In this document: piece after piece, positions 3,768-62,517 of the stretch
How the letters are laid out: each line of letters starts with the position of its first letter
Numbering within the stretch: the first letter of the stretch is position 1
Assembly (NCBI GenBank): GCA_964618765.1
Contig: CAZUDZ010000001.1
Span: 5,826-69,825, forward strand
Length of the DNA stretch: 64,000 bases
Direction: 5' to 3'
DNA from: an uncultured Candidatus Saccharibacteria bacterium
GTDB taxonomy: Bacteria; Patescibacteriota; Dojkabacteria; SC72
Translations under genes and position numbers: made by a program
The notes under the pieces: generated by a model
The model's database searches: none
Told to the model about the DNA's origin: nothing
What the model saw: the letters and a program-made list of their open reading frames with translations, nothing else

Positions 3768-5123
3768 ATGTCTGCACTTTTAGAGCAACACAACCTAGAT
3801 ACTTCTCAATCGGAGAAAGGGAATTCCCCTTTTTTTGTTATCGGTTCAGAATCAATCTCTTCTGATAAGAAATTCAGTAGAAGAAGAAGGTATGAGTTAT
3901 GGGAGGGAGAATTAGATGAGCAGCTTTTCCGAGAATTAAGTCATATGACCTTGTTAAAATTTAATCCAAATAGGACGGTATATGACAATAAATATAGAAA
4001 AAGGCGCCAATATCAAGGAAATCTATTCTGGGATCAGGAGGGTCTAGGTTCTCTACCATTGGAGGAAGATGATTGTGAAAAAATTAAGAGTTTTTTAATG
4101 CCAAAGGAGAACATAACATATGATGAGGCAGAAGCAATATTAGCAGGAGACCCTAACTTGTTAGTTTCTACCATGACTCTTCTTGTTAGCAACTACCTAC
4201 GAGAAATGAAGAAGGCAGAGGAGAATTTACTTAAAACTATGAACCCTGATAGTGGGAGTCCTGTTTTCTTGCCATTTCTCTTTACAGACGAAGAGGAGAA
4301 AATCTTTTTTACGGGTAAGACATTACTTTTGGAATTAAATAGACATGTAAATAGTACTTATGTTGTTGATTTAATAACAAAAGCTGATGAAATAATTACT
4401 GCTTTTAATCTTTTACTAGTCGCAAGTCTTGTTAGCAAACACAATATATATCTTGCGAGAGAGGACGCTTTCCAAGATGGTTGCATTGGTCTGTTAAGGA
4501 GCTTGGAGGATTTCGATATTGATAAAGATAAGAAGTTTTCTACCTATGCCTCTTGGTGGATAAAGCAAAAAATAAAGAGAGCTAACAGTGATAAAGGTGC
4601 TGAAATAAGGGTCCCGACACACTTGGGGAATAGGGTTAACAGAATTCTTAAGGAGGTTAATACCAAGTACAAGATGAATTCTGGGTGTAGCCGAGAACAG
4701 ATTCTTGAAGAAATCTTAGAAAAATATTCTTCTACTCGGCGAAAGAATATTAAGGCTGCTATAAATAGCCGTAACATCTTCTCCTTAGACGAAAAGAGAA
4801 ACAGTGAAGATGATGAGTATTCCCTTTTAGATAGAATTGCTTCCAAGTCTGATAAGGTAATGAAGGCTCTAGAGGATATAGAGAGGAAAGAGATAGTTCG
4901 GCAGATATTTGATCACACAGATTTTACACCAATAGAAAGGAGAATAATAAAATATAGGTTTGGTATAGGGCAGCCTGATGGGGAGATCCTTCCTTTAAAA
5001 GAAATTGGGAGGAGAGAGGGTGTTACAGGAGAAGCAATTAGACAAACAGAAGTAAAAGCTCTAGAGAAATTGGGGAAAGGTTTAATCAAGTTAGGGCTAA
5101 AGAAAGAAGATATCCTGTATTAA
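3768..5123 (+). CDS. rpoD: RNA polymerase sigma-70 family factor, primary-sigma architecture
   Basis: Region 2 (IGLLRSLEDFDIDKDKKFSTYASWWIKQKIKRA), region 3, and a region 4 helix-turn-helix (GEAIRQTEVKALEKL). The long acidic N-terminal region is typical of group 1 sigmas. Confidence 0.75.
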   Translation: MSALLEQHNLDTSQSEKGNSPFFVIGSESISSDKKFSRRRRYELWEGELDEQLFRELSHMTLLKFNPNRTVYDNKYRKRRQYQGNLFWDQEGLGSLPLEEDDCEKIKSFLMPKENITYDEAEAILAGDPNLLVSTMTLLVSNYLREMKKAEENLLKTMNPDSGSPVFLPFLFTDEEEKIFFTGKTLLLELNRHVNSTYVVDLITKADEIITAFNLLLVASLVSKHNIYLAREDAFQDGCIGLLRSLEDFDIDKDKKFSTYASWWIKQKIKRANSDKGAEIRVPTHLGNRVNRILKEVNTKYKMNSGCSREQILEEILEKYSSTRRKNIKAAINSRNIFSLDEKRNSEDDEYSLLDRIASKSDKVMKALEDIERKEIVRQIFDHTDFTPIERRIIKYRFGIGQPDGEILPLKEIGRREGVTGEAIRQTEVKALEKLGKGLIKLGLKKEDILY

Positions 5124-5180: not shown

Positions 5181-5816
5181 ATGCTTCCTAGAGAGAAATA
5201 TTTAGAAAAAGGTATAGATAATCTTACGGATATGGATATCATTGCCATAATAGTTGGTAGTGGGATAAAAGGGAAGGATTTCTTAAGTGTATCAAGAAGT
5301 GTCATTAGTAAAATGAGAAAGATAGCTAAGGATGGTAAGGAGATAGAGATTTCAGATATTGTACAAATTAACGGTGTGGGTATTGTTACTGCCATGAGAA
5401 TCCTTTGCGGGATAGAGTTGGGTAAAAGGTTATACAATCTACAAAAGAATGATATGGCTTTGGTGAGGAATTCTCAGGAGGCCTACACTGCTCTTAGAGA
5501 TATTGGTAGTAGAAAGCAGGAGCATGTAGTTGCACTGTTTCTCAATTCTAGATTTGAGGTATTGGATAGAAGAGTTATATGCATTGGAAGTCTAGATGGA
5601 GTTACAGTATTACCTAGGGATATAATAATACCTGCATTAGAGCTTAATGCTAGTAGTGTTGTCGTTGCACACAATCACCCATCAGGAGATCCAACTCCTA
5701 GTCACGAGGATATTGTCATAACAAAAAGAATACAGGAAGGATTAGAATTGGTAGGTCTAAACTTATTGGACCACATCATTATTAGCAAAGAAAATTGGAG
5801 GAGGGTAGAGAGTTGA
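5181..5816 (+). CDS. radC: RadC-like JAB/MPN domain protein
   Basis: N-terminal HhH-like segment followed by the JAMM motif HNHPSGDPTPSHED. Confidence 0.85.
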   Translation: MLPREKYLEKGIDNLTDMDIIAIIVGSGIKGKDFLSVSRSVISKMRKIAKDGKEIEISDIVQINGVGIVTAMRILCGIELGKRLYNLQKNDMALVRNSQEAYTALRDIGSRKQEHVVALFLNSRFEVLDRRVICIGSLDGVTVLPRDIIIPALELNASSVVVAHNHPSGDPTPSHEDIVITKRIQEGLELVGLNLLDHIIISKENWRRVES

Positions 5817-5832
5817 ATAGGTATTAATAAAG

Positions 5833-5861
5833 TTGCCAAGAACTCTTTTACTTTGTATAAT
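5833..5861 (+). promoter_or_regulatory. Sigma-70-type promoter upstream of rpsB: -35 TTGCCA, 17-nt spacer, -10 TATAAT
   Basis: TTGCCA at 5833-5838 and a perfect TATAAT at 5856-5861 with exactly 17 nt between them, about 90 nt upstream of the rpsB start and its AGGAAAGGA Shine-Dalgarno. Confidence 0.55.
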
Positions 5862-5950
5862 CCAACTGTTCATTTAATATATCTCATATATCTTTGTTCC
5901 AATCCTGGACATAGTCCAACAAAGATATTAATAAAAGGAAAGGAAAAAAA

Positions 5951-7081
5951 ATGTCAGAAGTTAAAAAAGAAGTCTTAAAGGAAACTGAGACTAAAAATAA
6001 AAGTTTTCAGATACCAGAACTAATAGATTTTCTAAGAGCGGGAGCTCATTTCGGGCATAAAAAAAGTGCTTGGAATCCTCGTATGAAGAAATATATCTAC
6101 GAAGAAAGAAATGGTATCCATATAATTGATCTTGTTAAAACAAGAGAAATTCTCGAGAAGGTATTAAAAAAGTTAGAAGATTTTTCAAACAAAGGAAATG
6201 TTCTCATTGTTGGAACTAAAGGACAAGCTGCTTCCGTTATACAAAAGGTTGCAGAAGAGAACGGTATGTTTTACATTAACCAAAGATGGATGGGTGGTCT
6301 CTTTACTAATTTTGATGTAATTAAAAAGAGTGTTCATGATTTAGTTAAGATGGAGGAACAGCTAGCAAGTGGTTTGCAAGGATATGTTAAGAAGGAGAGG
6401 CTCCTTTTACAGAAAGATATTGAAAGGTTAGACAGAATATACAAAGGAATTAAATTTATGGAAAAGCTTCCTGAGGTAGTTTTGGTGATTGATAGCCAAG
6501 TTGAAAAGAATGCAATTAAAGAGGCAAATAAAGTAGGTGTCCCAATAATAGCTTTAATAGATACAAATTGTAATCCAGACTTAATAACCTACCCAATTCC
6601 CGCAAATGATGACTCAATTAAGAGTATTTCTCTTTTCGTAAAACTCTTTGGAGAAGTTGTTGGTAAGAGTAAAAAATCTCTCTCTGTCGTATCTTTAAGG
6701 AGAGACCATGAAGCAAAATTAGAGAAGATTAAAAGAGAGTATGAGGAAGAGAAAGAGAGGATGGAGAGAATAGAGGAGGAGGAAAGACGAAGAATGAAAG
6801 CGTTAAGGGAGGGTAAGGTAGAAACGAAAGAGGTAGGTTCTGTGGTGAGGGTTGTGAAGAAAGAGAAAGATATAGAGGCTGACGTAAAGGCAGCGGAAGA
6901 AGTCAAAGAGAGTTCCAAGGGTATTGAGGAGTTAGGTCTTTCAACCAGAACAGAGAATGCACTAAAAGGGGCAAAAATTAAAACAGTACGAGATCTTAAA
7001 GGATACTCCAAGGAAGAGATGAGGGAAATTAGTGGTATAGGTCCCAAGTCAATAGAGGAGATTCAGAAGGCGATAAAGTAG
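5951..7081 (+). CDS. rpsB: 30S ribosomal protein S2 with a long C-terminal extension: a charged coiled-coil linker plus an HhH domain resembling the RNA polymerase alpha C-terminal domain
   Basis: The S2 core occupies about aa 1-240 (FGHKKSAWNPRM, VLIVGTKGQA, PIIALIDTNCNPD). The 376 aa length compares with about 250 for typical S2. The tail reads GIEELGLSTRTENALKGAKIKTVRDL...EMREISGIGPKSIEEIQKAIK. Confidence 0.9.
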   Translation: MSEVKKEVLKETETKNKSFQIPELIDFLRAGAHFGHKKSAWNPRMKKYIYEERNGIHIIDLVKTREILEKVLKKLEDFSNKGNVLIVGTKGQAASVIQKVAEENGMFYINQRWMGGLFTNFDVIKKSVHDLVKMEEQLASGLQGYVKKERLLLQKDIERLDRIYKGIKFMEKLPEVVLVIDSQVEKNAIKEANKVGVPIIALIDTNCNPDLITYPIPANDDSIKSISLFVKLFGEVVGKSKKSLSVVSLRRDHEAKLEKIKREYEEEKERMERIEEEERRRMKALREGKVETKEVGSVVRVVKKEKDIEADVKAAEEVKESSKGIEELGLSTRTENALKGAKIKTVRDLKGYSKEEMREISGIGPKSIEEIQKAIK

Positions 7082-7105
7082 GTAATAATTTAAGTATATA
7101 AAGAT

Positions 7106-7819
7106 ATGGCAGTAACAGTTGAAGAAATTAAAGAATTAAGAGCTAAAACATCAGCTGGTATGGCTCTTTGTAAAGAAGCACTAGTTAAATCAGATGGAGA
7201 TATGGGTAAGGCTGTTGAGTACATAAACAAGAGGAGTGATGTTATTAGCCGATTAAGAAATTTAACTGGGGCAAAGATAGGATTATGTAAGTTAGCTTTT
7301 GAAGATGCGGGTAAAGATTTTGAGAAAGCAGTTGAAATTATAAAAGAAAGAGGATGGGATAAACCAGTAGGGGCAGAGGAAACAGAAAAAGCAGAGGGAA
7401 TCATAGAGGCATATGTTCATGGAAAAGATAAGCGATTAGCTGCTTTAGTAGAGATAAAGTGCAAAACAGACTTTGTTGCAAGAAATGAAGATTTTAGAGA
7501 ATTTGCTCACGAAGTAGTACTACAGGTCGCAGCAATGAAGCCTGAATATATATCGAAAGATGATATCTCAGAACCTGAGGTTGCTAAACTAAAAGACCTC
7601 TTCAAGAAGGAGGCCCAAGCAGAAGGCAGGCCTGGCAATATAATCGGCAAGATCGTGGAGGGTAAGTTAACAAAATACTATAGTGAGAAATGTTTACTTG
7701 AACAGAGGTGGTTTAAAGATGAGGAAAAAACTATAGGGAACCTCTTGGACACCGCCATTCAGAAATTAGGTGAGCCCATAGAGATATCGAGAATATTACT
7801 TTGGGAATTAGGTAAGTAA
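7106..7819 (+). CDS. tsf: Elongation factor Ts
   Basis: N-terminal UBA-like EEIKELRAKTSAGMALCKEAL and the EF-Ts core. It sits directly downstream of rpsB. Confidence 0.9.
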   Translation: MAVTVEEIKELRAKTSAGMALCKEALVKSDGDMGKAVEYINKRSDVISRLRNLTGAKIGLCKLAFEDAGKDFEKAVEIIKERGWDKPVGAEETEKAEGIIEAYVHGKDKRLAALVEIKCKTDFVARNEDFREFAHEVVLQVAAMKPEYISKDDISEPEVAKLKDLFKKEAQAEGRPGNIIGKIVEGKLTKYYSEKCLLEQRWFKDEEKTIGNLLDTAIQKLGEPIEISRILLWELGK

Positions 7820-14663: not shown

Positions 14664-15896
14664 CTATTTCTGCATATATATTTTCTCTGTCTTGTTCCCA
14701 TAATACTCTCTTAAATACCTGTAGGAGTGCATAGATATGCTCTCATCTGTATCTAATACAGACGCTAAATAATTACCCTCCAAGGTAACCCCAAGATTAA
14801 GAATCTTCTCCTCTTTTACAAAAAATATCTTCCCAGGCGCTAGGTTTACATTTGCATCTAAATTTAATTCGATCAGTTGCTCCTCCTCTTGTAAATATTC
14901 AAAGAGGAGTGTGGGGTAATCATAATCAGTGTAAAAGTATGACTTAAATCCATACTTCTTGTTATGATAATCCCTTAGTACAGGGTCAATGGGTAAATGA
15001 ATATCATAGTAAGATTGTGCAATTAATCTGTAGGAGTCAAATCCTCCATAGAAATCTTTGACTTTAGCAAAAACATCCTTACTGTGATTGTTTGTCCACT
15101 TTCCACTATTAACAATATTTAAAGTTGCATCTAATACATTTCCGTGATCAGCTTTCTCAATATTACTCTTTCCAGTATTACCAATATCCATATCCAGCTT
15201 GTCAGAGATACCGTCATAATCAATATCATAGTTAACCTTGCCATCAGAGCCATACATCCTTGTACTATTATACGTATTCAAGGAGAGATACATGGAAAGT
15301 GGTAAATATATTACGGAAAGTGTAATTAAAGTCTTTAGTAGTATAGAGACACATCTGTTTCTCTTAAAATACTTCTTGTATACAGCAAGAAGGAATATAA
15401 ACACGAGAAGGAACTCTAATGCAAGAGCTGTTGTGAACAGAAATCCTACAAAGAGGTTTGATTCTAAAATATTTCGAAGAAGAAAAATCCGAACATTTGA
15501 GATTGGGTAGAGTAGCATAATACTTTCCACTAAAAAGTCAGCGATTAAATGGAAAAGGGTTGAAATGAGAAAGGTGTTTGCTAGTATGTTTAAGAGTCTT
15601 TTGTCTAAGACTTCTCCTGTTTTTCTGTTAAATAGTTTCTCTGTAAAAGAAATAGAGATTTTAAGAAATATCCAGATTACAATGTAGAAGATGGGAGTGT
15701 GAGTTATGATATCGTGATGTATAAAGCGAGGAACATTAAGCATTGAAAGAACTAATATATCGAAATCAGGTAAGATTCCAAAGAAAAGACTTAATAGGGC
15801 TACTAATATTTGTTCACTCATTTTAAGCTGTCTGATTTTCTTGTTCTGTATCGCCTCATTCGCTAGATACGATATTGGTCCGTGTGCTATATACAT
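14664..15896 (-). CDS. Polytopic membrane protein with a C-terminal extracytoplasmic domain; the N-terminal part resembles membrane-bound metal-dependent hydrolases (DUF457-like)
   Basis: Several hydrophobic helices in the first ~200 aa with a His-rich segment (RFIHHDIITHTPIF), followed by a ~200-aa hydrophilic domain. Confidence 0.55.
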   Translation of the reverse strand: MYIAHGPISYLANEAIQNKKIRQLKMSEQILVALLSLFFGILPDFDILVLSMLNVPRFIHHDIITHTPIFYIVIWIFLKISISFTEKLFNRKTGEVLDKRLLNILANTFLISTLFHLIADFLVESIMLLYPISNVRIFLLRNILESNLFVGFLFTTALALEFLLVFIFLLAVYKKYFKRNRCVSILLKTLITLSVIYLPLSMYLSLNTYNSTRMYGSDGKVNYDIDYDGISDKLDMDIGNTGKSNIEKADHGNVLDATLNIVNSGKWTNNHSKDVFAKVKDFYGGFDSYRLIAQSYYDIHLPIDPVLRDYHNKKYGFKSYFYTDYDYPTLLFEYLQEEEQLIELNLDANVNLAPGKIFFVKEEKILNLGVTLEGNYLASVLDTDESISMHSYRYLREYYGNKTEKIYMQK

Positions 15897-40405: not shown

Positions 40406-40759
40406 ATGGCTGATGAAATAAAAGATACAAATGAGAAAGTAAAGTCTTCGTTAAGTGATACTTTTGATGATTCAAAAATCACACAAGATGAAGAGGAAAC
40501 AGTAGAACACACAAAAAGAAGACCCAGAAGGAGAAGAAGGGTTGTTCAGAACTTAAAATGTCCACTATGTGAGTCAGGAGTAGGTGCTAAAGGTGTTAGC
40601 TACAAAGACATCTATCAGTTAAAGAAATATACCTCAGTAAGAGGAAAGATAATCTCTACAGAGAAATCTGGAGTTTGTAACAAACATCAAAGACAGATTA
40701 CAAGGGCTATTAAAAGAGCTAGATATATGGCATTACTTCCTTACTCTTTAGATGAGTAA
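40406..40759 (+). CDS. rpsR: 30S ribosomal protein S18 with an N-terminal extension
   Basis: S18 core (YKDIYQLKKYTSVRGKI...TRAIKRARYMALLPY) preceded by an ~40-aa extension. Confidence 0.85.
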   Translation: MADEIKDTNEKVKSSLSDTFDDSKITQDEEETVEHTKRRPRRRRRVVQNLKCPLCESGVGAKGVSYKDIYQLKKYTSVRGKIISTEKSGVCNKHQRQITRAIKRARYMALLPYSLDE

Positions 40760-40871: not shown

Positions 40872-42230
40872 ATGCCAAAACTGCCTTTACTAGAAAAAAA
40901 TGCGTACTTAAGTGTTGTGATTAAAGATAATGGGATATGGTCCCATTTGGCTTATACAGACCACAACGCAACAAGGGAATATATTCTCTCTGACTTTACA
41001 GATCTATATCCTTTAAGACATCGTTTAGACGATGAAGTTTTTTCAAGTGAGTTTTGGGGAGAGTATTTTGATAATTTAGAAAAGGTATTTAACTGGGATA
41101 TTGTGGACAGGAACAAGAACACCATATTTACGTTTAGAAAATTTAAGAATGAGGGAGATGGAATCAACGGTATTAGGGTGCAAATAGATGATAACCAGAA
41201 GTTTTTTGACAAGATATTCTCATCAGTTAGAAGTTTTTCTAAAGATGTGTCTCTTAGGGTAGTAGATGATCAATATATGTACAAAACATTACAAGAATTA
41301 GCACACAAGAGTGAGTATGACGATATCATATATGTAGATATGGATCTTATGGACTTCTCGGTATTTCGTGTAAGAAAAGTGTATGACAGAAGGAGTAAGC
41401 AGAGTAAAAATATTTTCTCTAGGTCAAAGGTGAATTGGAAGGACACTGTGTCTTTAATTGATTCTCTCCGAGATGCAAGATTTGGAGCCTTCTTGGCCAC
41501 GGATATAGGGAGAAAGGAAGTACTGAATTATTGGAGCAACTTCGTTTTTAACAGAATTTTCTCTTCCGAAGACCCTAACCTTTTAGATATTCTCAGATCG
41601 TATTGTACTATACAAAATCATTCGATATATAGGGATAATAGTGAGAAGATAGAGGGTTTCGGAGTCTCTGGTCAGGAGAGTTGCTTGATTGTCTCTGGAT
41701 ACATCCCTCGTGTTTTGGGGAAGTCAATAACTATGTTGACACTAATAGACGGATTAGAATTAAAAGGAGTTTTTGATTGCTGTTGGGATCTAGATGCTAA
41801 GTTGCTTTCGTATGGTAGAAGTTATGTGGATGGAGTTAATACAGCGGATATTATTTTAACAAGGAGTGAGATACTCTCCGACTTTACAAAGGTAGTACTT
41901 CCATATATAAAATCCTCAATAGCTTCAAACAAAGTAATTTTCTCGGGTACTGTAGAATCATTAAGCACCAAAAAGAATGAAATCTTTACACTCTCAAACA
42001 AATACTCTTATATAGATTTGCCAGTGAGTAATAATGAGAAATTTGTAGTGGAGGGACAGTTGAAAGAAGGTTTGTACATTCCTCCTAGCAAAAACAGGTT
42101 TGTAAACTTTGTGTCTGCTCCCAATGGTAAACAGTATGAGTCTATTCTTGTAGATGCAAGAGCTAGGCCGGTTGTGTATGGGCCTGATAGTAGTGCCAAT
42201 AAATTAAAGTTGCAAGAGTGGATAAAATGA
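40872..42230 (+). CDS. Hypothetical protein (452 aa)
   Basis: Long ORF with no recognised domain. The only noted feature is a DIGRK segment. It overlaps the next ORF by 13 nt. Confidence 0.6.
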   Translation: MPKLPLLEKNAYLSVVIKDNGIWSHLAYTDHNATREYILSDFTDLYPLRHRLDDEVFSSEFWGEYFDNLEKVFNWDIVDRNKNTIFTFRKFKNEGDGINGIRVQIDDNQKFFDKIFSSVRSFSKDVSLRVVDDQYMYKTLQELAHKSEYDDIIYVDMDLMDFSVFRVRKVYDRRSKQSKNIFSRSKVNWKDTVSLIDSLRDARFGAFLATDIGRKEVLNYWSNFVFNRIFSSEDPNLLDILRSYCTIQNHSIYRDNSEKIEGFGVSGQESCLIVSGYIPRVLGKSITMLTLIDGLELKGVFDCCWDLDAKLLSYGRSYVDGVNTADIILTRSEILSDFTKVVLPYIKSSIASNKVIFSGTVESLSTKKNEIFTLSNKYSYIDLPVSNNEKFVVEGQLKEGLYIPPSKNRFVNFVSAPNGKQYESILVDARARPVVYGPDSSANKLKLQEWIK

Positions 42231-43258
42231 TAGTAAGAAGGAAGATATTTGAAAGATATACAGATTACAGGTTTAATATCCCATATAAACCAGGGGATAG
42301 AGTATTGGTAAAAAGGGGAGATACTCTAAAGGAGAGTTCAGACCTTATTACTAAGAGGGGTAGTAATATTAAGCAATCTTTCTATTTGCCCGAGAAGATA
42401 GGAGTTGAAATATCAAAATTGCCAGAATATATAAAGTGTATGGATGGTGTGTTTGTAAATAAGGGAGATATTTTAGCAGAGAAAACTTTAGCAGGAGGCT
42501 TGAGTGTAAAAAGAGTTCTCTCTCCTGCACAGGGTGTGGTAGATCTTTCTAGGTTAGGTAGTGGCTATCTAGACTTACTGGGGGAGGAGAGTGAGATAGT
42601 TGTAAAAAGTACCTTTGGGGGAATAGTAGAAGGAGTGGACCCTGTCGAGGGAATAAATATTGTCTCAGATTCGTATGCTTTAGACCTCCTTTCTATTTCA
42701 GATATTCTTACAAGGTCGAAAGAAGAAAGGAAAATTTTTGGAGAGTTTATTGTCCTAGGAGATGGCAAGGATCTTGTTTTACATGCGGATAACTCAGACT
42801 ATCAGGACAAAATAGTGTTTGTTGGAAAATATCTCCACACCAGCCTACTTAATGATCTGTTCGAAAAAGGAGCTCTCTTTGTTTTAACATACTCCATGGA
42901 TTACGAGGATTTTAGAAGACAAGGCTTACCAGTTGGTGTAATCGGGGGATTTGGGGAGATATATTCTAGCAAGCAGATAATAGAGTTGATATCTTCCATG
43001 AGAGGGAAATTTGCTGTGCTAGATTATGATGAGAACCAAATATTCTTTATCACCAAAGATAAAACCTTCCTTTCTAAAGAAGAATTGTTTGTCAGAGTAG
43101 CATCTGGGAGCACCATACTCTCTCGTTCTCTTTCGAATTACGGAATGCTTGGGAAAATATTGTCAGTAGAGGAGGAAGGCCTCTATGTAAATGTCCAATG
43201 GGAGGGTGGTCAGAGAAGTATCATAAGTTTAGCAAGTGTCGAATTTGTGTCTCTTTGA
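42218..43258 (+). CDS. Hypothetical protein (346 aa)
   Basis: Long ORF with no recognised domain. Its start overlaps the upstream hypothetical gene, suggesting translational coupling. Confidence 0.6.
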   Translation: MDKMIVRRKIFERYTDYRFNIPYKPGDRVLVKRGDTLKESSDLITKRGSNIKQSFYLPEKIGVEISKLPEYIKCMDGVFVNKGDILAEKTLAGGLSVKRVLSPAQGVVDLSRLGSGYLDLLGEESEIVVKSTFGGIVEGVDPVEGINIVSDSYALDLLSISDILTRSKEERKIFGEFIVLGDGKDLVLHADNSDYQDKIVFVGKYLHTSLLNDLFEKGALFVLTYSMDYEDFRRQGLPVGVIGGFGEIYSSKQIIELISSMRGKFAVLDYDENQIFFITKDKTFLSKEELFVRVASGSTILSRSLSNYGMLGKILSVEEEGLYVNVQWEGGQRSIISLASVEFVSL

Positions 43259-61119: not shown

Positions 61120-62517
61120 TTGTCAAAATTTAAGTTTAATATACAATACAGTATGAAAGAATTCCCTAAATTAAATGATCAAGATGATTTTCTCCTCTCA
61201 TTGCAGAACAACAACTACAGTCTGCAAACCATATACAATTATGCTCGGGATCTTTGCATATTCGCTACTTTCCTACATTTTCGAAAAACGGAATTTAAAG
61301 ATATTAACAAAAAAGAAATAGACACATTCAAAGGATACCTAGTTGCAGGACAACACTTGAGAGATTTGGGTAAATTTAGAGAGAAAAGTGTCAAAAAGGT
61401 TGATGTAGTGCAGCTCGAGGGCAACAAGGCTCTAAACGCTGATTTAAGGCATGTCAAATCATTTAGTGATATAGACACACCTAGAAAAGAGAATGAAAAT
61501 GTGGTGAAACCCTCAGGAGCATTTGAAAGTGATTTTTTGACAGATGTGTACTCCAAGGTCTACGGAACTCTTGGACAATATTCAAACTCATCCAAATCTG
61601 CTAACAAAAAAAACAAAGGACTCAGTCCAAGAAGTATAAACAGAATGCTTTCATCTTTAAGATCGTTTCTAAAATTCAGAATCTCCTATGACTTAGAAAT
61701 CCCGTTACCCCCAGATGCTGTAGATTTAATGAAGGGAGAAAAGAAAATAAAAAAGGTTGCAAGTCTAGATCAGCTTGTTAAATTGATTGAAGCACCAATG
61801 CTTTTCGAGAAAGATGAAAAAGTGGCATTACGAAATAGATGCATGTTAGAAATGTTATTTGCCACCGGTATGAGGATATCGGAACTGGTTAACCTAGATC
61901 TAGAACAACTAAATGTTGAAGGGAAAATATATATTATCGGGAAAGGTAAGAAAGAGAGATCTGTCTATATGACCTCAAGAAGTTTAGATTGGCTAAATAA
62001 ATATCTAGTTGTTAGACTGAAATATGCATTTTTAGATAGGGATGAAAGTGAACAACCCGCAGAGATGGAGAAGTTTTTTATAGAAAACCCCAAGGAAAAA
62101 GACCGTGAAACATCTGGGAGTTCTGGGTTAAACTTAGAGATTTTCGATAAGGGTAATCGAAAATATATTAAACTAATCGAAAATTATAGAAAAAGTGGAA
62201 TGTTAAATAAATTTGACTCCCCTGCTCTCTTTATCCCTTTCTCTGGAAGAAAAGCTGGGAAGCCGAATGCCAGAATATCAACTAACTATTTTCAGGAGAG
62301 AATTGTGGTCTACAGAAAGAAACTGGGAATACAAATTCCTACCTCTGCACATAGCTTGAGGCATGGTTTTGCTACGTATTTAGCAGAAGAAGGTGCTAGC
62401 CCAGCTGCTTTACAAGTACTACTTGGTCATGAAAGTCTCAATACCACAACGAAATATGTACATGCAAGCGAGAAATTTGCTGAAGAAACAGTTAGGAAAA
62501 ATCATCCCTTGAAGTAG
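61120..62517 (+). CDS. Tyrosine recombinase (XerC/XerD-like integrase) with a ~100-aa insertion, 465 aa
   Basis: C-terminal catalytic box HSLRHGFATYLAEEGASPAALQVLLGHESLNTTTKYVH (R..H..R..Y). It also has an N-terminal SAM-like core-binding domain. Confidence 0.8.
   Translation: MSKFKFNIQYSMKEFPKLNDQDDFLLSLQNNNYSLQTIYNYARDLCIFATFLHFRKTEFKDINKKEIDTFKGYLVAGQHLRDLGKFREKSVKKVDVVQLEGNKALNADLRHVKSFSDIDTPRKENENVVKPSGAFESDFLTDVYSKVYGTLGQYSNSSKSANKKNKGLSPRSINRMLSSLRSFLKFRISYDLEIPLPPDAVDLMKGEKKIKKVASLDQLVKLIEAPMLFEKDEKVALRNRCMLEMLFATGMRISELVNLDLEQLNVEGKIYIIGKGKKERSVYMTSRSLDWLNKYLVVRLKYAFLDRDESEQPAEMEKFFIENPKEKDRETSGSSGLNLEIFDKGNRKYIKLIENYRKSGMLNKFDSPALFIPFSGRKAGKPNARISTNYFQERIVVYRKKLGIQIPTSAHSLRHGFATYLAEEGASPAALQVLLGHESLNTTTKYVHASEKFAEETVRKNHPLK

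Follow-up and report, generated by a model that had tools for sequence, protein, structure and literature searches.

We analysed a 64,000-nucleotide (nt) stretch of DNA from an uncultured bacterium deposited as Candidatus Saccharibacteria and placed by GTDB in the Dojkabacteria (GenBank assembly GCA_964618765.1, contig CAZUDZ010000001.1, positions 5,826 to 69,825), hereafter the window; coordinates are those of the window and refer to its forward (+) strand unless marked (−). The gene rpsB, encoding ribosomal protein uS2 (S2), lies at 5951–7081 (stop codon 7079–7081). On the evidence of its open reading frame (ORF) and of Pfam and NCBIfam matches, it encodes a 376-residue fusion of uS2 with the C-terminal domain (CTD) of the RNA polymerase (RNAP) α subunit. 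A promoter and a structured leader precede the gene and tsf follows it. Public assemblies hold a protein identical to this fusion (P0001). An original prediction, made from the sequence of the window alone, had proposed that 6670–7081 encodes a charged helical linker and an α-CTD-like helix-hairpin-helix (HhH) domain fused to S2. These positions correspond to residues ~240–376, that is, to the entire tail that follows the uS2 core, and the stretches quoted in that prediction match the protein exactly, with KLEKIKREYEEEKERMERIEEEERRRMKALREGK being residues 256–289 and GIEELGLSTRTENALKGAKIKTVRDL...SGIGPKSIEEIQKAI being residues 324–375.

The uS2 core spans residues 25–242 (6023–6676), as delimited by PF00318, TIGR01011 and Foldseek. 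The Pfam model Ribosomal_S2 (PF00318) matched residues 28–236 over model positions 2–212 of 216 (E=4.5e-77; 258.6 bits, cut-off 26.1), and the NCBIfam model TIGR01011 (rpsB_bact) scored 272 bits relative to a cut-off of 76.3. Briefly, a full-length AlphaFold2 (AF2) model was built from 33 homologues, and the tail alone was modelled separately. The core was predicted with a per-residue confidence (pLDDT) of ~85–95 and showed the α/β globular domain and coiled-coil hairpin of the uS2 fold. Its Foldseek alignments to uS2 chains of ribosomes gave template-modelling (TM) scores, normalised to the target, of 0.86–0.90 with a root-mean-square deviation (rmsd) of ~2 Å, and the chains from S. aureus and T. 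thermophilus aligned with a TM of ~0.89 and 42% identity. Among the solved ribosomes that were matched, the uS2 chains had 195–237 residues, the alignments ended at the core and no tail like that of the fusion was present; the 307-residue entry 4toi is an S2–S1 complex and not a long-tailed S2. The core is preceded by a conserved N-terminal extension of ~24 residues (residues 1–24; 5951–6022), which AF2 predicted to be disordered (pLDDT <50) and in which E13, T14, S18, F19 and Q20 were invariant among 33 sequences. The N-terminal region of E. coli S2 (Phe16) is situated where the zinc finger of RNAP β′ makes contact (PMC5655137). No second S2 was found in the window or its flanks.

The α-CTD occupies residues 324–376 (6920–7078) and was assigned from PF03118, matches in the PDB, superposition and conserved residues. 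The Pfam model RNA_pol_A_CTD (PF03118) matched residues 316–375 over model positions 6–65 of 67 (E=4.1e-16), and the 59-residue end of the tail on its own was matched with E=1.9e-17. This alignment, which had been put forward as a check of the original prediction, therefore scored 58.9–63.2 bits, well above the gathering score of 23.8. Eight NCBIfam rpoA equivalog models also matched residues ~298–375. When residues 300–376 were searched against PDB sequences, 26 of 26 distinct matches were RNAP α, aligned over its CTD, the best of them from cyanobacteria, B. subtilis and T. thermophilus. AF2 predicted a compact helical domain at residues 324–375 (pLDDT 71–81) with the two HhH motifs of the α-CTD fold, and the tail model superposed on isolated α-CTD chains (1z3e_B, 3gfk_B, 1lb2_E, 3k4g, 9zum and others) with an rmsd of 0.5–1.0 Å over 51–52 residues; the first 39 Foldseek matches of this model were all RNAP α. 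The α-CTD match is far beyond chance. Neither RNA_pol_A_bac nor RNA_pol_L was found in the ORF in the Pfam search. These results indicate that the protein genuinely belongs to the uS2 family and its tail to the α-CTD family, and that the fusion is not an RNAP α subunit. The predicted presence of both domains in one ORF was thus borne out by Pfam, by PDB sequence matches and by structural overlay.

The same architecture was present in all close relatives. The 120 best protein clusters, drawn from NCBI, JGI, ENA and Logan assemblies, were 64–100% identical to the query and 372–397 residues long except for one 348-residue entry, and PF00318 and PF03118 occurred together in 120 of 120; where clusters carried names, these were Candidatus Dojkabacteria and, once, 'Microgenomates'. 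A tail-only alignment placed the fusion at no fewer than 47 independent loci, including at least 20 species-representative genomes and at least 27 metagenome contigs. The genomes at these loci were mostly labelled Dojkabacteria or WS6 (including a 2015 WS6 metagenome-assembled genome), with some automatic 'Saccharibacteria' labels. The frame running from S2 into the CTD was uninterrupted in 45 of the at least 47 loci, where the contig allowed this to be followed, and complete ORFs encoded 376–389 residues. The full ORF was seen in 19 of the 20 listed species-level genomes, the twentieth being cut by the end of its contig. Locus L050 is a tail-only fragment at a contig end, and L049 (1436–1836), on a 2.5-kb metagenomic contig, carries a frameshift in the S2 tail just before the CTD that represents either a sequencing error or a rare short allele. 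Column identity was 0.74–0.80 in the tail, cf. 0.85 in the S2 core, and the tail kept a length of 134–138 residues down to 46–50% identity. As judged from these alignments, the S2–αCTD architecture is a fixed feature of the lineage (Dojkabacteria, candidate division WS6, of the candidate phyla radiation (CPR)/Patescibacteria) under purifying selection.

The frameshift in the short contig L049 could be taken as a sign that rpsB and a piece of rpoA were brought together artificially, by chimeric assembly or by a frameshift error. With the same open ORF in nearly all listed species-level genomes, in the metagenome loci and in every one of the nearest clusters, and with tsf directly after rpsB as in normal rpsB–tsf operons, such an artefact is hardly conceivable. 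Misassembly, the caveat that had accompanied the original prediction, was checked and is excluded because the fusion is conserved across many independent assemblies.

The tail that follows the core comprises ~134 residues and consists, in order, of a charged helix, a short hinge, the motif SVVRVVKKxK, a short amphipathic helix and the α-CTD. The long charged helix (residues 241–286, 46 residues; 6671–6808), which would measure ~69 Å if straight, was predicted by AF2 with a pLDDT of ~90, whether the full-length protein or the tail alone was modelled. Its middle part abounds in E, R and K, and of 47 residues 29 carry a charge, as would suit an ER/K-type single-α-helix spacer. R250, R270, R281 and M282 were invariant. 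Conserved hydrophobic positions were observed at both helix ends (L244–L260 and M282–V290) and at M274, and these argue for partial docking. A coiled-coil dimer was also considered and is unlikely, since conserved hydrophobic a/d positions are sparse. The hinge (residues 287–296; 6809–6838) had a pLDDT of <50 and includes conserved E287, G288 and K289 as well as residues 291–296, the sole variable stretch of the tail.

Next to the hinge lies the invariant motif S-V-V-R-V-V-K-K-x-K-D (residues 297–307; 6839–6871), which was delimited by conservation and modelled by AF2 as disordered. S297, R300, V302, K303 and K306 were conserved in 100% of the 120 sequences, in which residues 297–307 were essentially invariant and more conserved than the CTD, and SVVRVVKKxK was invariant in a 16-sequence alignment of the tail. 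A near-invariant segment (residues 297–307) within a stretch predicted to be disordered (residues 287–307) is characteristic of motifs that become folded upon their partner, and from its conservation SVVRVVKKxK is a probable docking or binding strand. The amphipathic helix that precedes the CTD (residues 308–321, modelled by AF2) and the following junction (together 6872–6919) align with the interdomain region of rpoA models; NCBIfam rpoA alignments begin at residues 298–306. Of the charged helical linker in the original prediction, the helix itself is retained for residues 241–286, where AF2 models one, and a passive spacer is not, given the invariant SVVRVVKKxK and the near-constant length.

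The DNA-binding '265 determinant' of the E. coli α-CTD consists of R265, N268, C269, G296, K298 and S299. R333, G364 and K366 of the fusion, which we take to be the equivalents of R265, G296 and K298 in E. coli numbering, were invariant among the 120 sequences. In the same numbering, the N268-equivalent position was K in 89 of 120 sequences and N in 31, the C269 equivalent was A, S or L, and the S299 equivalent was A in 88 of 120 and S in 29. The acidic pair equivalent to D258/D259 was kept. The E261 equivalent was mostly G, the region of the 287 determinant was not conserved, and the domain ends at the equivalent of A308, such that it is without the C-terminal segment carrying R317 and L318 of the 287 determinant.

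uS2 is located on the solvent face (the rear side) of the 30S subunit at the head–body hinge, where it is flanked by the exit (anti-SD) chamber of the mRNA and by the entry side. It contacts h26 and h35–h37, anchors bS1 and borders the chamber and duplex formed by the Shine-Dalgarno (SD) and anti-SD sequences (PMC10983998, PMC10931766). In the E. coli 30S–RNAP complex, the β′ zinc finger of RNAP binds S2 (PMC5655137), while in the NusA-NusG-TTC-B transcription–translation complex the KH1 domain of NusA touches S2 and S5, and NusA-N and AR2 bind the two α-CTDs of RNAP (10.1101/2020.03.01.972380). An S2 core, a linker and a genuine α-CTD/HhH domain in one protein would thus place a module for contacting nucleic acids or proteins on the solvent face of the 30S subunit, in agreement with what had been predicted.

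The S2 fusion may in this way provide a connection between the ribosome and either the transcription machinery or DNA. In the reading that we tentatively prefer, the arm would attach to A/T-rich duplex DNA and/or to some component of the elongating transcription complex, and would hold the 30S subunit or the lead 70S ribosome near RNAP or the nucleoid; this reading is preferred because the equivalents of R265, G296 and K298 are retained and the genome is 64% A+T. Each ribosome would display one α-CTD on an arm with a reach of roughly 100–150 Å from the S2 body, so that the mRNA channel could be approached at either of its ends. SVVRVVKKxK probably docks this arm on the ribosome surface or on a partner, fixing where the CTD operates. 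The CTD would use R333/G364/K366 for minor-groove and backbone contact, and would grip A/T-rich duplex DNA and/or a putative partner in the elongation complex. NusA would be the best candidate for this partner, because its N-terminal domain binds α-CTD and its KH1 domain is already positioned on uS2/uS5 in the E. coli complex. Binding would hold the 30S subunit or lead 70S ribosome beside its target, and such tethering would favour co-transcriptional loading of ribosomes and transcription–translation coupling in a cell of very small size whose set of factors is reduced. Two points weigh against this reading. The equivalents of N268, C269 and S299 are not conserved in the CTD of the S2 tail, which makes UP-element-type sequence specificity doubtful, and the docking-like features that the alignments suggest for the linker would fit a fixed ribosomal role as well as they fit a roaming arm.

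In such a fixed role, the tail would be a purely ribosomal extension in which the CTD and the motif bind 16S rRNA, the SD–anti-SD duplex, mRNA or a neighbouring ribosomal protein, and would either steady or steer mRNA at the exit/platform side or make up for parts that the reduced CPR ribosome has lost. We regard this as nearly as likely as the reading that we tentatively prefer. The near-constant length of the linker, the invariant SVVRVVKKxK and the conserved residues at the helix ends suggest fixed docking, and uS2 borders the SD–anti-SD chamber (PMC10983998). There is also a precedent in the chloroplast ribosome of Chlamydomonas, in which extensions of uS2, uS3 and uS5 form an arch and build mRNA-channel architecture; moreover, Dojkabacteria are without bL9, CPR ribosomes are generally reduced and the S18 protein encoded in the window is likewise extended. 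HhH hairpins of the GxG-K type bind phosphate backbones generically. Conversely, the domain scores as a canonical RNAP α-CTD and not as a diverged RNA-binding HhH, and it keeps the equivalent of R265, a residue that is inserted into the narrow minor groove of B-DNA and for which A-form RNA is without an equivalent groove. AF2, in addition, gave no packing of either the CTD or the motif on the S2 core.

Upstream of rpsB, a sigma-70-type promoter of the rpsB–tsf operon (TTGCCA, 17 nt, TATAAT; 5833–5861) matched the consensus at 11 of 12 positions, and a TATAAT box was present at the same distance in many orthologous leaders. The gene tsf, encoding elongation factor Ts (PF00889; 7106–7819), begins 24 nt downstream of rpsB, and no terminator-like site was found in 5700–7300; because this 24-nt gap is without a terminator, tsf is considered to be co-transcribed with rpsB.

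The 5′ untranslated region (UTR) of rpsB contains a two-stem hairpin (5888–5928), defined by folds and covariation, which is a candidate S2 operator. Stem P1 pairs 5888–5898 with 5918–5928 and stem P2 pairs 5907–5910 with 5914–5917, while the 5′-side internal loop CCAAUCCU (5899–5906, 8 nt) is invariant within the main leader type. A second leader type, in which the loop sequence is different, was found at L007, L032, L034 and L043. Across leaders, the outer stem has 10–11 bp, the inner stem has 4–5 bp and the terminal loop is variable. The SD region of rpsB (AGGAAAGGA; 5936–5944), recognised by its sequence and conserved in orthologous leaders, lies 8–16 nt downstream of the hairpin. The same architecture was the minimum free energy (MFE) fold of 17 of 17 distinct leaders when these were folded as single sequences (orthologous positions in L003–L043), with MFE z-scores of −3.9 to −5.3 for four type-1 leaders and −2.2 for the type-2 leader L007. 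In a trimmed alignment with explicit structure, 90.4% of cells were paired, compared to 39–59% in slid controls. Compensatory double changes were observed at five pairs, 0 of 500 shuffles reached the observed covariation score, and both stems covaried, with up to four pair types at single positions in a register-corrected count; since the sample of leaders is small and its sequences are related, this covariation is supportive rather than conclusive. RNAalifold returned no structure from a MAFFT alignment of the leaders, because the stem halves are out of register in that alignment. No Rfam family matched the leader at gathering or permissive thresholds, and the exact hairpin core was unique in the window. 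Overall, this analysis makes the hairpin a good candidate for the rpsB–tsf operator and for a new ribosomal-protein leader.

This leader bears on an extraribosomal role for the fusion, in which free S2 would use its CTD on its own 5′ UTR, in autorepression of rpsB–tsf, or on A/T-rich DNA upstream of promoters, where it would compete with RNAP α and couple the status of ribosome assembly to transcription. The covarying hairpin with its conserved loop is found in the window only at this site, close upstream of the rpsB SD, and the CTD retains DNA-contact residues, both of which are consistent with such regulation. Also consistent with it is the autogenous repression of rpsB–tsf by uS2 in E. coli, although there the S2 core together with bS1 is sufficient and no extra domain is used (PMC10931766). 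We consider the extraribosomal role unlikely: nothing ties the CTD specifically to the leader RNA, the binding of an operator leaves the rigid 46-residue helix and the fixed tether length unexplained, and the CTD is equally conserved at the four loci with type-2 leaders, in which the loop differs. The original prediction had suggested a device for transcription–translation coupling or for autoregulation by S2, and we infer that these are favoured by the invariant DNA-contact residues, by uS2 being a contact surface for NusA and RNAP and by the structured leader.

The gene order around the fusion is that of a penicillin-binding protein (PBP), DprA, TopA, RadC, S2, Tsf, Frr and an M50 protease, with rpsB–tsf–frr kept in nearly all of the at least 47 loci. 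Compared to the other loci, L025 (4750–9320) has an insertion of ~3.8 kb that separates radC from rpsB. In the window, a gene of the sigma-70 family (3768–5123, 451 residues) lies between topA and radC; only regions 2 and 4 were recognised in its product, in which ~228 N-terminal residues were without a Pfam match. This gene was also present in the near-identical contig L022 and absent at the syntenic position in all other loci, and is a lineage-specific insertion. A functional link between the S2 fusion and this gene was considered and rejected, as the gene is not syntenic elsewhere.

A profile hidden Markov model (HMM) built from the S2 tails was compared with the six-frame translation of the window, and no second α-CTD ORF (rpoA) was found. 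Neither rpoA nor a second α-CTD was found within 10 kb beyond either edge of the window, or in the at least 47 orthologous loci with flanks of up to 10 kb. The rest of the window, as scanned, contains housekeeping genes, including topA, mfd, dnaX, recR, cysS, rnhB, ychF, S6-ssb-S18 and dnaB, among others. S18 (40406–40759, 117 residues) matched its Pfam domain only at residues 62–111, leaving an N-terminal extension of ~60 residues, and the S6–SSB–S18 cluster is without L9, consistent with the reported absence of bL9 from Dojkabacteria. Three ORFs (40872–42230, 452 residues; 42218–43258, 346 residues; and 14664–15896 (−), 410 residues) had no Pfam match at E≤1e-4. A tyrosine recombinase of the phage-integrase family is encoded at 61120–62517 (454 residues as called on contig L021); on that contig, small ORFs without a recorded Pfam match flank the recombinase, on the high-coordinate side of the window, and may mark an integrated element.

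To place the domain among its relatives, we used the CTD alone as the query against 1.8 billion representative proteins, and the best 150 matches (P0121–P0270) were considered. The top matches were long metagenomic proteins with 3–12 tandem PF03118 repeats (e.g. P0121, P0123, P0124, P0130, P0144 and P0169), while others combined sigma-70 region 4 with three α-CTDs, ResIII/Helicase_C with sigma region 4 and three α-CTDs, or a TIR domain with two α-CTDs. Multi-repeat proteins dominate the best 150 because their summed scores outrank those of single domains. Among these 150, rpoA and S2 fusions of other than the Dojkabacteria type were not found, and the only S2-type entries were fragments of the same Dojkabacteria fusion family. 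Weak α-CTD-like matches were also observed in NCBIfam, namely to the β′ fusion model NF011498/PRK14906, to BREX PglW and to the 95-residue standalone PRK07758. The α-CTD is thus a widely reused, portable interaction module, and the S2 fusion is the sole ribosomal use of it that was seen.

As the α-CTD is a known hub for protein contacts and other proteins join it to sigma region 4, the tail could instead mediate ribosome–ribosome association, such as a 30S–30S hibernation contact, or recruit a sigma factor or an activator. uS2 lies at 100S interfaces, uS2 chains of solved 100S structures were among the fold matches (5ngm, 6h58), and the acidic positions equivalent to D258/D259 are retained. 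Nevertheless, these roles are quite improbable: a coiled-coil dimer would need more conserved hydrophobic a/d positions than the long helix has, the E261 equivalent is mostly G and the region of the 287 determinant is not conserved, and the sigma-like gene next to the fusion does not keep its position in other genomes.

A published description of an S2–αCTD fusion was not found within a coverage of the literature that is incomplete, and a dedicated survey of CPR ribosomal proteins never mentions uS2. The fusion sequences are public and automatically annotated with both Pfam domains, and the fusion is a lineage-specific extension of a ribosomal protein made from a known domain. How the ribosome and RNAP find and hold each other is an active question, and work on it has to our knowledge been confined almost wholly to E. 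coli, Mycoplasma and Bacillus. A polymerase contact domain carried throughout a lineage on uS2, the protein that is turned towards RNAP and NusA in complexes from E. coli, can be regarded as a natural experiment. A tail segment of 80 residues, in which three contact residues are invariant, also provides a defined reagent, for which A/T-rich DNA, the N-terminal domain of NusA and rRNA are the predicted partners. If the coupling reading is true, this would be the first polymerase domain to act as a constitutive component of the ribosome, and a stronger version would apply if the CTD of RpoA itself proves to be lost or altered in this clade, in which case the domain would have moved from polymerase to ribosome. 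Should coupling not be the right reading, the α-CTD would still prove recruitable as a structural or RNA-handling module of the ribosome, adding to the unusual features of CPR ribosomes. Separately from the fusion, the covarying rpsB leader is a candidate for a new ribosomal-protein regulatory RNA. The architecture of the fusion is solid and would surprise researchers working on coupling; its function is what we infer, and the organisms are uncultivated.

Compared to the α-CTD of RNAP, the CTD of the S2 fusion has the same fold, belongs to the same family (PF03118), is ~43–44% identical to the CTDs of B. subtilis and T. thermophilus, shares the equivalents of R265, G296 and K298, and is likewise tethered by a linker to a larger body. 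It differs in that N268, C269 and S299 are not conserved and the R317/L318 segment is missing. The body is the N-terminal dimerisation domain of α in one case and uS2 in the other, the polymerase carries two α-CTDs where the fusion would give one per ribosome, and the short flexible linker of α is replaced by a predicted rigid helix of ~46 residues and a conserved motif. Other proteins outside rpoA also reuse the domain, many of them in tandem copies, although none among those seen is ribosomal.

The fusion also resembles long uS2 variants, namely those described by NF051451 (the 'sunset domain' S2) and NF008966 (PRK12311, long S2) and uS2c of Chlamydomonas, all of which have a normal core with a large extra segment exposed on the solvent side of the 30S subunit. 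It was not a full-length match to either model, scoring 188.8 bits against 710 for NF051451 (model positions 8–252 of 382 only) and 231.7 bits against 526 for NF008966 (positions 10–222 of 334 only), and it alone among these variants has an extra domain that can be recognised as a module of RNA polymerase. The leader shares with that of E. coli rpsB–tsf a structured 5′ UTR directly upstream of rpsB in the same operon; the Dojkabacteria element differs in being a simple two-stem hairpin with an 8-nt internal loop and without similarity to Rfam families.

The closest functional parallel to the preferred reading is offered by the bridges of the E. coli TTC-B complex, where RNAP is connected to the 30S subunit via uS2 and the α-CTDs, the same surfaces as those proposed for the fusion. 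In E. coli this route is built from separate factors and the α-CTDs are on the polymerase, whereas in Dojkabacteria an α-CTD is covalently attached to uS2. Coupling in this lineage could be hard-wired, with the ribosome-borne α-CTD binding the N-terminal domain of NusA or the DNA just upstream of the polymerase and so tethering the 30S subunit or lead ribosome; we put this forward as a speculative proposal with less than even prospects, in which a connection that E. coli assembles from several proteins would be carried by uS2 itself.

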